Assembly (NCBI GenBank): GCA_963833985.1
Contig: CAWIAD010000002.1
Span: 2,400,001-2,464,000 of the forward strand
DNA: 64,000 nucleotides
Direction of reading: 5' to 3'
From: an uncultured Planctomycetaceae bacterium
Lineage (GTDB): Bacteria > Planctomycetota > Planctomycetia > Isosphaerales > Isosphaeraceae
In this document: positions 24,998 through 30,814 of the stretch, piece after piece
Layout: each line of letters opens with the position of its first letter
How positions within the stretch are numbered: position 1 is the stretch's first letter
Program-made: the position numbers and the translations under genes
Notes under the pieces: model-generated
Database searches by the model: none
What the model was told of the DNA's origin: nothing
The model's input: the letters and a program-made list of their open reading frames with translations, nothing else

Positions 24998-25164
24998 GTT
25001 CGGTTCTCCGGGGAAAGTGAGCCCGGACGACGGTCGCGTCCGGACGTGATGGACCGTTGACGTCCGGAACTGATGCTGGCTGCGCCGTGAGATTCCGTCA
25101 AGTGCCGCCTCGAATAGCCAGGGAGCGCCAGGATGAACGGGTGACGAACGTCCGGAAGCGTAGC

Positions 25165-25418
25165 CGCTTGCGAGATTCCTCGCGGTTTGCTCTCCTTATG
25201 CCGGCGCGGTCTTATCACTTCACCTCAGGTGCCCCATGCGCTTGCTCTTCTCGTCGGTTCACTGTGACCTGGACCCCTCCGGCGGCGCGGCGCTGTGCAC
25301 GCGCGAGATGCTCGAGCCGCTGGCGGCGCGGGGGATGGACTGCCGGGCGCTCACGATGGGGATCATGGACCCCGAGCGCGAAACATCGCTCGACGAGTTC
25401 AGGGCTGCGACATTCTGA
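25165..25418 (+). pseudogene. Copy 2 of a leader plus 5' fragment of a GT4-like glycosyltransferase
   Basis: ORF 25236..25418 (MRLLFSSVHCDLDPSGGAALCTREMLEPLAARGMDCRALTMG) resembles a GT-B N-terminus and stops where a REP begins. Confidence 0.65.
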
Positions 25419-25419
25419 C

Positions 25420-25630
25420 GGTGCGTCGTCGCTGCGCTCGACTCACCCTCCGATTGGGCCTTCCGGGCCCGGCCGGCCCGGCGATCCTCGACCCTGGCCG
25501 CGGAACGTCCGACATCTGTAGCGTGTGTCGAGCGTAGCGCCGACACACCGATTCACGGCCCCGGCATCCGCCGCAGGGCCCGGGAACATCCGACAATTGT
25601 AGGGTGTGTCCAGCGCAGCGACGACGCACC
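25420..25630. repeat. Three REPs of the same GTAG family as 22321
   Basis: Inverted copy 25420..25451; forward copies 25518..25549 and 25599..25630, each preceded by GGAAC(g/a)TCCGACA (81-bp period). Confidence 0.82.
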
Positions 25631-25821
25631 GATCCGGTGACAGCGGGGATGGACCACCAAGCTTTGCTGGGTCGGCGATGGTCAGAAAAAGCGGATCGGG
25701 CCACAGGATTCACTTGACCTACGCCGACGCCGGATTTACCTTCAGCGCTTGTCCCGACAACGCATCTCCTGATCTGAACTCTGTGACCCGTCCGCTCGCG
25801 GCTCTCCATTCAGTGATCACG

Positions 25822-26070
25822 ATGACCGACAACGACTTGAGCTCCGCCGGCGGCTACACGTTCACTTATGATAACGAGGGCAACACGATCGGCGAGCTCC
25901 AGCTCTCGTGGGGCGACGAATGGAGGTTCGGCCCCGACGACCGCAACAACAACCCCACAATGAGCGCGGTCGAGAAGAGCTCGGGAGGCACGAAGAGGGA
26001 GCGGGAGAACTCGAAGTTGGGTGCGCCGGGCCGCCCTTACGGCGCCGACGCCTGGAGCGCCAGGACCGCA
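25822..26070 (+). pseudogene. RHS/YD-repeat protein remnant
   Basis: GGYTFTYDNEGN...GDEWRFGPDDRNN...SAVEKSSGGT resembles decayed YD repeats; no RHS core end or toxin tip recognised. Confidence 0.6.
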
Positions 26071-26249
26071 GGCTGCCGGGCCTGGAATATGGCCTCCGAC
26101 CAAGGGGACGGCAGCCCTGAGCCAGGCATAAAACTCAACAGAAAGCATGATCACGGCGTCTATCCCAGATTGCTCAGCCGTCGTCGGAGAATAGCAATGC
26201 CCCTTCAGGCCTCGGCGAGTTGCGGGGCCAGAGAGTCTAGAGAGCGGCC

Positions 26250-26882
26250 ATGTTTGGAAGTCATAAGAATTTGTTCTTCGGGTGCATCTTCGCGGCCGGG
26301 CTCCTTGTGGCCAACAAAGTCTTCGAGGGACTGCTGAGGCAACTCTTTCGCAAGCCCGCTCTAGACGAGTCGACACAGAGGCAACTGCGTCATTTCGATG
26401 AATTCCAAAAGCACATAAACACACTTACGGTAGATAATGCGAGGGCGGCCGTCCTAGCTCTGCTACGAGATGGCAAGCTCTCCTGTGTTCCCAACGAGGG
26501 ACTTTCCCATCCGGAATGTAACTGCCTGCCTGCCGCGGCGAGGCAACTGCTCAGCGCCTATCATTGTATTGATTCCAAGGACATGTGCTGGCGCGTAGCG
26601 TTGGGTCAAGGCCATTGCCGTGACCGTGTAGAAAGCCACACCGTGGTCTTATCGGACGAATACGGGGGAACATTTGTCGTCGGTCCCTTCTCCGACGAGG
26701 TCTTCGAGGTGATCGGTACCGATCGAGACACACGCCTAGAACCTTTTGCCCGAAGTATATTTCATTGCGTGCTTATCATGTACAGCGATGAGCAGGACGA
26801 GCTCACCGATGGGCGTATGACCGGGCTGGTACCAGATAACGAGGAGGTCGAGGGGGACATAAGGAGGTCGAGGGGGACATAG
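26250..26882 (+). CDS. Hypothetical protein, possible SUKH/SMI1-like immunity protein
   Basis: Visibly more AT-rich than flanking core genes; LPAAARQLLSAY and terminal FARSIFHCVL echo SUKH-fold motifs; follows the RHS remnant. Confidence 0.5.
   Translation: MFGSHKNLFFGCIFAAGLLVANKVFEGLLRQLFRKPALDESTQRQLRHFDEFQKHINTLTVDNARAAVLALLRDGKLSCVPNEGLSHPECNCLPAAARQLLSAYHCIDSKDMCWRVALGQGHCRDRVESHTVVLSDEYGGTFVVGPFSDEVFEVIGTDRDTRLEPFARSIFHCVLIMYSDEQDELTDGRMTGLVPDNEEVEGDIRRSRGT
26843..26881 (+). repeat. 19-bp direct repeat x2
   Basis: GGAGGTCGAGGGGGACATA at 26843 and 26863, overlapping the end of the upstream ORF. Confidence 0.85.
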
Positions 26883-26964
26883 TGAATTGCGACGGTAGGA
26901 TGGACAGGATGGGGCGTCGTGCTTCGTTAATCGATGATTCGCGGGTTGGCTGTCAGGTTCGAGG

Positions 26965-27215
26965 AAGAAATTGGTGTCAGGAGAAATTGGTGTCAGAGGA
27001 GAAATTGGTGTCAGGAGTAATTGGAGTCAGTTCATTTTTCTTAGAGTAATTGGTGTCAGTTCATTTTTCTTAGGGAGTAATTGGTGTCAGTTCATTTTTC
27101 TTAGGAGAAATTGGTGTCAGAGGAGAAATTGGCGAGAAATTGGTGTCAGTTCATTTTTCTTAGGAGAAATTGGTGTCGAGAAATTGGGAGAAATTGGTGT
27201 CAGTTCATTTTTCTT
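26965..27215 (+). repeat. Left array: 12 head-to-tail units with a common 5' end and variable 3' truncation
   Basis: Units start at 26965, 26981, 26999, 27015, 27044, 27075, 27105, 27123, 27134, 27164, 27178, 27188; full unit GAG(A/T)AATTGGTGTCAGTTCATTTTTCTTAG; lengths 10-31 bp. Confidence 0.95.
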
Positions 27216-27243
27216 GACGCAAGCCCGCATCTCGCCGTAACGT
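27214..27243 (+). promoter_or_regulatory. Putative sigma70 promoter giving a leaderless transposase mRNA
   Basis: TTGACG (27214) - 18 bp - TAACGT (27238); ATG 27251 lies 7 nt after the -10 with no Shine-Dalgarno; the -35 starts in the innermost repeat unit. Confidence 0.55.
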
Positions 27244-27250
27244 GGGCATC

Positions 27251-27973
27251 ATGGGACGTCTTCCTCGCGCCACCGACGACGGTCTGGTCTACCACGCGAT
27301 GAACCGCGGGAACAACCGCGCCGAGGTCTTCGTCGGCGATGGCGATCATGAGGCCTTCTTCGAGTCGCTCCGGGCTGCGAAGGACCGTTATCCCTTCGCA
27401 CTATTCGGTTATTGCCTGATGAGCAACCACTTCCACCTCCTGCTCAAGCCGAGCCCAGGGCAGTCGATCAGCCGGAACCTCCAGTCGCTCAGCGTGGCCC
27501 ACACGTGGCGATACCACAAGCGGCACCGCACCTCGGGGCACGTGTGGCAGGGCCGCTCCAAGAGCCCGGTGATCCAGGACGATGACCACCTGCTGGTCGT
27601 GCTACAGTACATCGAGGCCAACCCTGTCCGCGCCGGTATGGTCGCCGACCCGAGGGCCTACCGGTGGTCGAGCTATGGCCAGCACGGGCTGGGACTGATT
27701 GACACACTTTTGGACGGTTTCCCCGAGTGGGAGCATCTCGGCCCGTCCGAGGTGGAGCGTAGGCGGCGGTGGCGGGCAAAGTTGCGGTCGGCACAGAGGC
27801 CGGACGAACTGACGGCCGTACGTGAGTCGCTGCGGACCGGACGCCCGCTGGGCTCTCCCGCCTGGGTCGAGGGAGTCGCGACCCGATTGGGCATTGACCT
27901 GACCCCGCGCCCGCGGGGCCGGCCACGAAAGGAGCAATCGGCATCGGCCAGAAGTGCCCGAAAAATGAACTGA
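27251..27973 (+). CDS. Y1 (HUH) tyrosine transposase, RAYT/IS200-like superfamily
   Basis: YHAMNRGNNR..VF, YCLMSNHFHLL (HUH), VWQGR.KS, YIEANPVRAGMV (catalytic Tyr), YRWSSY, C-terminal PRGRPRK. Confidence 0.93.
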   Translation: MGRLPRATDDGLVYHAMNRGNNRAEVFVGDGDHEAFFESLRAAKDRYPFALFGYCLMSNHFHLLLKPSPGQSISRNLQSLSVAHTWRYHKRHRTSGHVWQGRSKSPVIQDDDHLLVVLQYIEANPVRAGMVADPRAYRWSSYGQHGLGLIDTLLDGFPEWEHLGPSEVERRRRWRAKLRSAQRPDELTAVRESLRTGRPLGSPAWVEGVATRLGIDLTPRPRGRPRKEQSASARSARKMN

Positions 27974-28420
27974 TACCGATTATCTCCGAAAAATGAACTG
28001 ACACCGATTATCTCGACACCGATTATCTCCCCCAGGGGAGCAATTCCCTGGGGCCACCAGGCCCGATTATCTCCGAAAAATGAACTGACACCGATTATCT
28101 CCGAAAAATGAACTGACACCGATTATCTCTGACACCGATTATCTCCGAAAAATGAACTGACACCGATTATCTCTGACACCGATTATCTTCCTGGGGCCAC
28201 CAGGCCCGATTATCTCCGAAAAATGAACTGACACCGATTATCTTCCCCCTGACACCGATTATCTCCGAAAAATGAACTGACACCGATTATCTCCCCTGAC
28301 ACCGATTATCTCCCGATTATCTCTGACACCGATTATCTTCCTGGGGCCACCAGGCCCGATTATCTCCGAAAAATGAACTGACACCGATTATCTTGAAAAA
28401 TGAACTGACACCGATTATCT
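27957..28420 (-). repeat. Right array: 19 units, inverted relative to the left array
   Basis: Every unit ends in CCGATTATCT on + (starts AGATAATCGG on -); full unit AGATAATCGGTGTCAGTTCATTTTTCGG; + strand unit ends at 27985, 28013, 28028, 28072, 28100, 28128, 28144, 28172, 28188, 28215, 28243, 28264, 28292, 28311, 28322, 28338, 28365, 28393, 28420. Confidence 0.95.
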
Positions 28421-28468
28421 TCCCGGTGTAATTTGCCGGGGAAGATGACATGCGTGCAACCGCCACGC

Positions 28469-28497
28469 TTGGCAATACCGCCCGGTTATGGTATGCT
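28469..28497 (+). promoter_or_regulatory. Putative sigma70 promoter of the TA operon
   Basis: TTGGCA - 17 bp - TATGCT with an extended -10 TG, 24 nt before ATG 28522. Confidence 0.55.
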
Positions 28498-28521
28498 GGA
28501 AATTGAAGGGGAATCATTTAA

Positions 28522-28803
28522 ATGACCATACATTTACCCAACGATCTGGAAAGCCGCCTCCAAGCGGTCGTCCAAAACGGCCGGTTCGCCTCCGTCGATG
28601 ACGCGATGGCCGAGGCCGCACGTCTCTTGCTCCGCGAGATCGACCAACGGCAGCAAGCACAGCCGCACGCCGAGGGGATTGATCCCGGACCCGACCCGTT
28701 CCTTGGCTCCATGCGGGATGCCGCCGACGAGCTAGACCAGATCGTTGCCGACGCCTACCGCAGACGGCGGGAAGACACATGGCGGGATGTCGCCGTTGAG
28801 TAA
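28522..28803 (+). CDS. Putative antitoxin, ribbon-helix-helix/ParD-like N-terminus
   Basis: MTIHLPNDLESRLQAVVQNGRFASVDDAMAEAARLL; small; overlaps the toxin start. Confidence 0.75.
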   Translation: MTIHLPNDLESRLQAVVQNGRFASVDDAMAEAARLLLREIDQRQQAQPHAEGIDPGPDPFLGSMRDAADELDQIVADAYRRRREDTWRDVAVE

Positions 28804-29212
28804 GGCCCTGCTCGATACCGACACCCTTTCCGAGATAAGCAAGGGCGTTAACCTCACCGTCGCCGCCAACGCCACCGCCTACCGCCGGGCCTTTGGACGC
28901 TACACGACCTCGACCGTCAGCGTCATGGAGATCGTGCGGGGATTCCAGCAAAACCAGAGCACTCGCCGCTTACAAGCCTTCGTGGCGTCGCTCGCCACGC
29001 TGGAAATCCTGCCCTTCGACCTCCCCGCCGCCGAACTGGCCGGGCGGATTGCTGGCGATTTGGAACGTGTCGGACGGCCCATCGGCGTGGCCGACCCGAT
29101 GATTGCGGCCATCGCCATGACCAACGGCTTGGAGTTGGTCACGGGAAACACCGCCCATTTCCAACGCATCCAGCAGCTCGGCTATCCGCTCACGCTGGTC
29201 AACTGGCGTTAA
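28796..29212 (+). CDS. vapC: PIN-domain toxin (VapC family)
   Basis: LLDTDTLS, SVMEIVRG, IGVADPMIAAIA, LVTGNTAHF; TTG start overlapping the antitoxin stop (alternative ATG 28787). Confidence 0.9.
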   Translation: MSKALLDTDTLSEISKGVNLTVAANATAYRRAFGRYTTSTVSVMEIVRGFQQNQSTRRLQAFVASLATLEILPFDLPAAELAGRIAGDLERVGRPIGVADPMIAAIAMTNGLELVTGNTAHFQRIQQLGYPLTLVNWR

Positions 29213-29219
29213 GCGTCCG

Positions 29220-29583
29220 CGCCCTGCTCTCCCGCTGCCACCAGATGCTCGAGGACATCCCCTCGGCCCTGAGCGCCTGCGCCGCGGGGTTGCGGCTCGA
29301 CGCCGACGATGCCGAGCTTCACTTCCGCAAGGCGATCCTCCATCGCAAGGCGGCCCAGCCCGCCGAGGCCGAAGCGTGCTGGCGGCGCATCCTGACGCTA
29401 AAGCGTGCGGAGCAGTTTTGCAGTGTGGATCAGGGCATCTACGGCCAGCTGACGCTGCGCAACCTGGCCGTGCTGGCCGAAGAGCGCGGCGACTACGCGG
29501 AAGCCCAGCGCCTGTGGGCCCAGTTCCTCGCCGAGCGCCCGGGTGATGCCCAGGCCGCATCGCGCCTTCAAGCATCCTGTTAG
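29220..29583 (+). pseudogene. C-terminal TPR fragment, probably from a TPR-glycosyltransferase
   Basis: TPR-like helices (DDAELHFRKAILHR..AEAEACWRRIL; RNLAVLAEERGDYAEA); coding-like sequence continues upstream of the Met up to the vapC stop with no RBS. Confidence 0.55.
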
Positions 29584-29799
29584 CTCGGTGCACCTGCCGC
29601 TCGCCACGTACGGACGGGCGTTCCGCGCAGTGGAGTACCGTCAAGCCCTGCGGCTGGTATCCACCGCACTGACAACCAGACTGCTGCCGCGCTGCACTGT
29701 TATCTTGGTTCCCGGGCCCGAAGGCGATAGACTGAATGGAACTGACAAACGGCGTCACCGCTTGCCACCGTTGCTTTCCAGAAAGAAAGGCCAAGTGCC

Positions 29800-30814
29800 A
29801 TGGGTATTCCCGCTCGGAGCCGCGTCGCGATCGCGTGCCAGGGAGGTGGCAGTCACACGGCTTTTTCCGCAGGCGTTCTCGAGGGCCTGTTGAGCCAGCT
29901 TCCCGAAGATGTGGAGGTGGTGGCACTCTCGGGCACGTCCGGCGGCGCCATGTGCGCGGCGCTTGCCTGGGACGGCCTGGTGCGCGGCGATGCCAGGCTG
30001 GCCGGCCAGAAGCTGAGACGATTCTGGGAGGCCATCTCGGCCCGCAAGCCGTGGGACAAGATCCTGAACCAGACGCTGCTGAACATCGTCAACCTGCGCA
30101 ACCACATGGTCCTGCCCGAGGTCAGCCCCTACCACATGCCGACCTGGGGCGAGGACCTGTTTCGTGAGATCCTCAACCAGCATTTTGATTTCGAGGAGTT
30201 GCGAAAGCTGGCGCGTCGGCCGGGAGCCCCGGCGCTGCTGATCGGTGCGGTTGAGGTGCTCACCGGCCATTTCGAGGTCTTCACCGGCCCCGAGCTCCAG
30301 GTGGAGTGCCTGCTGGCGTCGGCCGCCATCCCCGAGCTCTTCCGGGCGGTCACGGTGCCCGGGCGAGGCGTCTTCTGGGACGGCCTGTTCTCGCAGAACC
30401 CGCCGATTCACGATATGACAGACTTCAATATCAATGAGCTCTGGGTGATCCAGATCAACCCCAGTACCTGCGCGGGTGCCGACGGAGACGCACGAGATCA
30501 TCGACCGCCGCAACGAGCTGGCCGGCAACCTGTCGATGGAGCAGGAGCTGAACCTGATCGAGATCATCAACCGCTTGCTGGCCTCAGGCAAGCTGAACGA
30601 CCCGAAGTACCATCCGATCCATGTGGCGCGGATCCCGCTGGACCGGGACCTCGGCTACACCTCGAAGCTGGATCGCTGGCCGTCCTTCCTGGACGAGCTC
30701 ATGGACTACGGCAAGTCGAAGGCCCGCTGGTTCCTCAAGGAGCGGGAGGGTCGAAAACACACGCTGAATGCCCTGGGTGTTTTTTCCGCCGCCGGCGTGG
30801 CCCCGGCCTTCTAA
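29800..30814 (+). CDS. Patatin-like phospholipase/esterase, apparent indel near 30472
   Basis: ACQGGGSHTAF oxyanion motif, GTSGG nucleophile, WDGLFSQNPP; C-terminus continues in frame 30476..30814. Confidence 0.88.

Follow-up and report, generated by a model that had tools for sequence, protein, structure and literature searches.

The gene and its two arrays

Why should a small nuclease gene lie between two arrays built from truncated copies of its own ends? The question is raised by a locus of an uncultured Planctomycetaceae bacterium (Isosphaeraceae; assembly GCA_963833985.1), lying in a 64,000-nt stretch of contig CAWIAD010000002.1 (positions 2,400,001-2,464,000) that is referred to here as the window. 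An earlier note, made from the letters of the window, had described one intact HUH/Y1 gene with 12 units on its left and 19 on its right, and a parse of the window returns exactly these numbers. The left array (26966..27218, plus strand) consists of 12 copies of the left end, all anchored at the head and truncated on the 3' side, each 10-31 nt long with the head AGAAATTGG or AGTAATTGG; the innermost copy, which begins at 27189, is intact. Its 18-nt TIR core, GGTGTCAGTTCATTTTTC, occupies 27196..27213 (plus strand), with the head/core junction between 27197 and 27198. At the right end, on the minus strand, the innermost unit (27960..27985) has its head at 27985-27976, followed by a core, GGTATCAG, that departs from GGTGTCAGTTCATTTTTC by a G>A change. 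A further 18 head-anchored, truncated copies lie beyond it (27986..28420, minus strand), bringing the right array to 19 units (27960-28420) of 11-44 nt with the head AGATAATCGG. Heads in the window arrays are 9-10 nt long. The right array is partly block-duplicated (the 82 nt of 28163-28244 recur exactly as 28313-28394), so that its 19 units do not represent 19 independent events.

As had been claimed, left and right arrays lie in inverted orientation and share one core: with up to two mismatches allowed, GGTGTCAGTTCATTTTTC is found 14 times in the window, every time inside the arrays (the mean for shuffled sequence is 0.01, and none of 100 shuffles reaches 14). Read toward the gene, all 11 outer pieces of the left array and all 18 of the right start at the head; their stops, 0-18 nt into the core, fall at 4 distinct offsets on the left and 5 on the right. 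The variable stops of the earlier note therefore stand as described. Its common starting base stands in the sense that all 29 outer units begin at the head, but the start is fixed only to within 0-3 mostly purine junction letters. Similarly, the heads are side-specific in that left and right differ in the window, but they also vary between copies of one and the same end. The description of the units as non-palindromic and lacking GTAG agrees with the folding of two single units (0 kcal/mol) and with a parse that contains no GTAG-tagged hairpin. Neighbouring left units 4-6 have variants in common, and in three units of the right array the head is followed by group II intron sequence in place of the core.

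The gene (27251..27973, plus strand) is intact, as the note had it, and specifies a 240-aa HUH nuclease of the TIRYT (TnpA-Y1 subclass 2.1) type. The protein matches Y1_Tnp with E 3e-14 and has the motifs NHFH at residues 59-62, WQ, Y120, N124 (in YIEANP) and WSS. The final codons and the stop sit within the right TIR. A search of PDB sequences with the protein found no relative; the predicted structure (mean pLDDT 89.7) has E. coli RAYT 4er8 as its top Foldseek match (E 2.2e-8). The score for NF047646 (RAYT), 74.1, is under the cut-off of 80, and that for NF033573 (IS200), 18 bits, lies below the cut-off of 55. A helical C-terminal extension reaches to about residue 213 with high pLDDT and is followed by RPRGRPRK, a tail that we take to be AT-hook-like. 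Inspection by eye of 27214..27250 (plus strand) finds TTGACG and TAACGT separated by 17 nt, the probable promoter of a leaderless message; a promoter scan did not pick up this pair. The closest homologues of the protein occur in Isosphaeraceae and in other planctomycetes.

A member of the TIRtron family

Whether such a family had already been described was left open in the earlier note. It has been: TIRtrons, or TIRYTs, were named in 2013 by Di Nocera, De Gregorio and Rocco (PMC3733652), and subclass 2.1 of Quentin et al. (2018; PMC6006769), which according to these authors probably corresponds to TIRYT/TIRtron, is the RAYT group 1 of Bertels et al. (2017; PMC5581495). On its sequence features, the element of the window is a TIRtron, and probably also a representative of subclass 2.1. 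In common with TIRtrons it has a Y1 gene between inverted repeats that are unrelated to REPs (PMC3733652); in common with subclass 2.1 it has the motifs NH[YF]H, WQ, Y---NP and SS and a length of 240 aa, as against a subclass median of 238 (PMC6006769). GGTGTCAG fits the TIRtron motif GGGGWSAS, which is present in many TIRs and is not demanded of every TIR (PMC3733652), at 7 of 8 letters; the relatives have GGGGTCAG. In the TIRtron papers, as far as the available sections go, the C-terminal extension is HTH-like in many members, whereas here a short helical extension is followed by RPRGRPRK, and a Pfam search of the 240-aa protein gave no match to an HTH family. Among the Y1 groups, subclass 2.1 ranks second in size and is found in 14.9% of strains (PMC6006769); the duplication rate of RAYT group 1 is the highest of the RAYT groups bar the IS200-like group 6 (PMC5581495); and TIR dimers, as well as TIR clusters elsewhere in the genome, are known for TIRYTs (PMC3733652).

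RAYT (TnpA-REP; Ton-Hoang et al. 2012, PMC3333891) has its fold and catalytic motifs in common with this protein. The likeness does not extend to the repeats: those of RAYT/REPtrons are palindromic REPs with a 5' GT[AG]G tag, whereas the window units are truncated end copies with neither hairpin nor GTAG tag. Unlike a RAYT gene, moreover, a TIRYT gene appears to move with its ends. The TnpA proteins of IS200/IS605 elements (IS608, ISDra2) share the HUH-Y1 core fold, and no target duplication is seen here; but they have Y---Q, about 150 aa, subterminal hairpins and no TIRs, in place of the Y---NP, 240 aa and TIRs of this element, whose two strands, unlike those of IS200/IS605, appear to have equivalent 5' ends and which has no adjacent tnpB. 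The element is neither an IS200/IS605 member nor a REP-flanked RAYT/REPtron.

How much of this is new? The TIRYT family, TIR clusters, the duplication rate, the homing of introns into IS inverted repeats and the priming of endonuclease-less introns are all on record (PMC3733652, PMC5581495, PMC4615759, PMC6698660). The available sections of the TIRYT literature (PMC3733652, PMC6006769) contain no 5'-anchored truncated arrays, swappable head, intron targeting or mechanism; Figure 9 or the supplements of PMC3733652 may show part of this. The word "tandem" is absent from the available text of PMC6006769, and the supplement of that paper gave no match to three taxon terms. In a literature search of open-licence PMC and bioRxiv, neither the polarity nor the swappable head nor the head-bracketed intron pieces were found described.

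Arrays across the family

Fixed-5' arrays in the flanks of homologues, which the earlier note had suggested looking for, are family-wide. The sample comprised 85 ends of homologues at at least 50% identity; 24 ends lacking the core by pattern, several of them with a variant core by eye, were set aside, and 27 of the 61 ends having a core carry arrays of at least two units. When these 61 ends and three more from the window's own genome were parsed without anchoring, 157 pieces (a few of them by chance) were recovered at 34 of the 64 ends. Relative to the core, 131 of these pieces start at -14..-7, 122 of them at -12..-9, and 16 start at 0 or later; the stops range from -2 to 192. Among the 15 arrays with at least three pieces, 14 have a smaller spread at the 5' side than at the 3' side (median SD 1.8 vs 11.3). 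One remnant in the own genome has units that continue for 157-179 nt after the core start, into the gene and beyond. A like architecture, with unrelated heads of 8-13 nt, is seen by eye in distant homologues from other phyla. A pattern scan of metagenomes yielded 4 loci only.

What fixes the start? Positions -7..-1 upstream of the core are conserved, and positions -8..-12 are 69-84% purine, a bias that fades further out. Within one genome the same heads are found at more than one locus, which argues that they travel with the element. The second full copy in the own genome (96.4% identical in nucleotides, 94.6% in amino acids) nevertheless has another left head, and has it throughout the array of 22 units; at one locus in a relative (L100) the head matches the last bases of an insert sitting in a TIR at another (L113), an insert that is presumably IS4-like. 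From the comparison of ends we infer swappable heads, local rebuilding of the arrays and a start that is probably set mainly by distance from the core. That the heads might be target duplications was also considered, and rejected: there is no complementarity between left and right heads, and the same heads recur at different loci.

Extra letters at the junctions are strongly purine-biased in seven own-genome arrays (G25 A20 C9 T4). The excess fades in the wider set, with 71 of 114 extra letters being purines (62%) and no extra letters at 75 of 137 junctions, so that non-templated purine addition is retained as an optional feature. G runs may be sequencing errors.

Other Y1 genes of the same genome have arrays as well. 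Another Y1 family, of 350 aa, is represented by about 13 long copies (85-100% identical in amino acids; C2:6223724, C2:5033419, C2:195262, C1:3168098 and about ten more; C1 and C2 prefix own-genome coordinates) with head-anchored arrays at the left end only. Each copy has its own A/G-rich head, and its right end has a different type of repeat. By length and motifs this family appears to be subclass 2.3-like; the available part of PMC6006769 reports that no repeats were found for subclass 2.3. Two 455-aa Y1 copies (C2:551448 and C2:2519136), 99% identical to each other, have left heads in common and unrelated right heads, one of which has been amplified to an array. The right array of the second copy of the window's element (C2:3099736-3099870) includes an insert of 122 nt, in which an internal piece of the gene end is accompanied by sequence without another match in the genome.

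Group II intron fossils between heads

The most informative units are those in which the core has been replaced. Between two right-head copies (28019-28028 and 28063-28072) lie 34 nt, 28029..28062 on the plus strand, that match the domain VI region, at the 3' end, of a group II intron: 31 of 34 letters are identical to the intron end at C2:1024972-1025005. The assignment is by identity to that copy, which scores 36.6 bits where the Rfam gathering score is 40, and an Rfam search of window positions 25000-30000 gave no match. On the inward strand the piece reads as the reverse complement of the intron, starting from its last base, and the second head and intact end then follow. A shorter copy of 16 nt lies in a more outward unit (28190..28205, plus strand), and is itself duplicated (28340..28355, plus strand) within the 82-nt block.

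A full-length related intron is available for comparison. It runs from C2:4727546 to 4725505, is inserted exactly at the head/core junction of a TIR doublet, in the outward-reading strand, and has an RF00029 match of 42.4 bits at C2:4725505. Its protein of 449 aa, a group II RT/maturase, has RVT_1, a weak GIIM match (E 0.032, below cut-off) and a TIGR04416 match above cut-off; in this one protein no HNH match to an endonuclease domain was found at E up to 0.1. In 11 of 15 introns the EBS1 hexamer that the 5' exon would predict is found, and it varies as the target does; the misses are L093, which is cut off, L170 and L171, which are one letter off, and L185, a mismatch. With a stricter EBS1 pattern the count is 3 of 11 only.

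In 121 family genomes a pattern of head plus intron end has 76 matches, spread over 41 of the genomes, as against 6 for the reversed control. Of these matches 64 were inspected, the other 12 being mostly chance-like text. The 53 structures in relatives, sorted by eye, include 12 plainly truncated introns, besides 23 introns that are long or complete, 10 palindromes of the head-DVI kind and 8 chance matches. Three of the 12 truncated pieces stop where their head appears a second time with an intact core behind it (58 nt at L199, about 108 nt at L167 and about 340 nt at L185), five are joined at or near the head of another TIR family (L119, L149, L190, L193, L195), and four have no recognisable head at the end, as is true also of a piece in the own genome (C2:3039629). 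These intron fossils between duplicated heads are new here, and constitute the most informative part of the finding.

The cDNA of a group II intron begins at the intron's 3' end. The pieces accordingly fit a strand that was primed at the head start, ran inward, stopped at random and was joined to a fixed 5' end; they may instead have been copied from a fully invaded end elsewhere. There is precedent for the target in RmInt2, which homes into the inverted repeats of ISRm17 (PMC4615759), and for the need of an outside primer in RmInt1, which, like other endonuclease-less introns, primes on nascent strands (PMC6698660). Here too introns home to the inverted repeats of a transposon; unlike the case of RmInt2 and ISRm17, however, the host element encodes an HUH nuclease, and duplicated 10-nt heads bracket truncated copies of the intron (the word "truncated" is absent from the available text of PMC4615759). 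Such bracketed copies point to a fixed place of priming and resealing rather than to nascent lagging strands. Where introns do bear an endonuclease, the cut lies about 9 nt inside the 3' exon (PMC6698660, available sections), a distance that matches the head length and is counted here in favour of a nick at the head start.

Several further intron structures deserve mention. Tiny arrangements of head, domain VI hairpin and head, often with two different heads and no core, are found at L156, L158, L166, L173, L179, L188 and L196. Another intron family, with 12 Rfam matches (C1:1996122, C1:777880 and ten similar), and an ORF-less intron (C2:1024209) are located mostly in or beside a GTGG-tagged REP-like repeat with 95 motif copies, so that the introns of this genome target several repeat families of the REP/TIR type. 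The lineage of TIRYT-targeting introns also homes, with the EBS1 GGACGC, to another inverted-repeat family, with the core GGACGCAGCTAG, at L147, L157, L170 and L184. At the left end of L013 the intron 3' end abuts the head start in inward orientation, unlike every other case.

How might the arrays be built?

The earlier note proposed repeated nicking at one site, with re-joining of end-derived strands. The polarity seen across the family, the rarity with which simulated slippage yields the pattern and the intron pieces between duplicated heads speak indirectly for that proposal; its outline is not new, nick, extension and re-joining having already been proposed in print for the amplification of BIMEs by RAYT (PMC3333891). 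The version we would adopt, by a small preference over all other accounts combined, is that a nick about 10 nt outside the core, inward extension of its 3'-OH and resealing to a tyrosine-held 5' end build the arrays. The protein would bind the conserved core AATTGG-TGTCAGTTCATTTTTC and nick the inward-reading strand about 9-13 nt outside the head/core junction, at a place set mostly by distance, with Tyr120 becoming linked to the 5' end of the head. A host polymerase would then extend the freed 3'-OH inward by strand displacement over 10 to a few hundred nt, at times with a few extra letters. Finally the 3'-OH, free or re-cut, would attack the phosphotyrosine and leave a head-anchored truncated copy just outside its template. 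This is essentially the RAYT model of Fig. 7B in PMC3333891 (nick, polymerase extension, attack on Tyr-5'P), from which it would differ in that there a second cut supplies the 3'-OH. Should reverse splicing have placed an endonuclease-less group II intron in the opposite strand at the head/core junction, the 3'-OH of the nick would prime its reverse transcription; resealing of the aborted cDNA to the head would generate head, intron tail, head and core in succession, as at 28029-28062. A foreign 3'-OH joined to the tyrosine-held head would leave element ends abutting truncated unrelated genes without target duplication.

The scheme has its difficulties. Described Y1 enzymes choose their cut by a hairpin and guide bases; that the tested units are unfolded and no conserved cut sequence is visible counts against a nick of the Y1 type. 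The ten palindromes of the head-DVI-head or fold-back kind are not simply explained, and the truncated intron pieces that end at no recognisable head, four in relatives and one in the own genome, also count against the scheme. Offsets 0, 4 and 6, at which 1-2 nt agree with the start of the head, account for many of the 3' stops, a pattern that would suit realignment of a primer as well. In that case the nuclease would only bind: a fork would stall at protein-bound TIRs, and the nascent strand would slip and restart about 10 nt outside the core. Nascent strands do serve endonuclease-less introns as primers (PMC6698660), the 75 clean junctions among 137 and the occurrence of block duplications are in keeping with slippage, and a toy simulation of slippage at 3-nt microhomology gives the window pattern in 15 and 12 of 300 runs, that is, in 4-5% of runs per array (at 5-nt microhomology, in none of 300). 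The corresponding toy nick model gives it in 300 of 300 runs but was built to succeed, and an earlier version of the simulation, in which chance flank matches were counted, did not separate the models (0.57 observed, 0.56 for slippage, 0.81 for the nick). What makes realignment unlikely in our estimation is that it requires a fixed restart point without conserved sequence, and that it poorly explains both intron pieces at the heads of other TIR families (those five loci listed above) and units of more than 150 nt rejoined at one start.

One might dispense with polymerase extension from the nick. Single-strand end pieces, cut at the head start and at loose inner sites, would be reinserted beside another end in the manner of BIME excision and integration. 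In vitro a dinucleotide suffices as the RAYT cut site, and the enzyme recombines its substrates to give tandem copies (PMC3333891), and gene-less TIR doublets with arrays of their own do exist (L095, L108, L109, L111). The stops, however, have no common dinucleotide by eye, the intron pieces would need a fully invaded copy elsewhere as their source, and the variants common to neighbouring left units 4-6 favour local copying; such cutting and pasting is decidedly improbable. Could the arrays, conversely, be by-products of a parasite, with all of the units made by the group II intron reverse transcriptase or from primase-started fragments? Introns do home to the head/core junction, and the extra letters are purine-rich in the own genome; we nonetheless give this very little credence, in view of the three of ten array-bearing genomes (G138, G141 and G142) that have no RVT_1 match, evidence that weighs lightly since those genomes may be incomplete or may have lost the enzyme. 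There is, lastly, the prospect that the assembly is at fault. A search of reads for the source organism located none (the best run had 0.10 of the words of the stretch; contigs of four runs that aligned to it were derived from relatives and spanned neither array), and the lengths of G runs could be long-read errors. An artefact is hardly credible all the same: independent assemblies have a like architecture at 27 of the 61 related ends counted above and in distant phyla, and the units are aperiodic, have private variants and include a meaningful intron insert. That the window arrays are a real feature is confirmed.

If nick, extension and resealing do build the arrays, these would predict the cut site, strand and polarity for TIRYT, which short oligonucleotides could test, and would constitute a genomic record fitting the nick-extend-reseal model of BIME amplification. 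If the intron link holds as well, endonuclease-less group II introns would have a new priming route, and the enzyme would be a small nuclease-ligase joining arbitrary 3' ends to a defined 5' end. The fullest form of the idea is offered tentatively, being in our judgment rather doubtful: TIRYTs as hairpin-independent HUH nucleases that nick by a ruler of about 10 nt outside each TIR and ligate any nearby 3'-OH to the held 5' end, with endonuclease-less group II introns, their EBS1 set exactly opposite, borrowing the nick as primer for reverse transcription and the resealing as ligase, in replacement of the missing En domain.

Copies, ends and neighbourhood

Besides its second full copy, the own genome has two fragments of the element, and one relative (G009) has 7 protein matches. 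The flanks of the copies are unrelated, often truncated genes. For 18 two-ended copies (own genome and fetched loci) neither an empty site nor a target duplication was found, the longest shared flank word being 3-6 nt, so that movement as a unit is deduced from copy number only. An inverted end match of at least 12 nt is present in 45 of 66 intact homologues (2 of 66 for the direct control). Core variants cluster on the tree, with 4 changes against a shuffled mean of 9.6 (32 of 67 rows labelled).

Immediately to the left of the element, 26842..26965 (plus strand) is, by eye, probably what remains of the left end of a second TIRYT-type element, truncated by the left array: a 20-nt sequence is present in two direct copies ending in GGGGGACATA, and a start, MGRRASLIDD, lies at 26909. 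The segments 25606-26882 and 28522-29583 look like a variable island. They include a fragment that is RHS-like by eye and has paralogues at four other places, an orphan ORF of 210 aa, a ParD-like/VapC pair and a TPR fragment, the last of which is met again close to the TIRYT copies of several relatives. The outermost right head contributes its first letters to an inverted repeat at 28416-28447, which might be a terminator, a target hairpin or a fold-back product. TIRYT ends are themselves invaded: inserts that we suppose to be IS4-like elements lie in or at the ends at L113 and L038, the former with an 11-bp duplication of the core.
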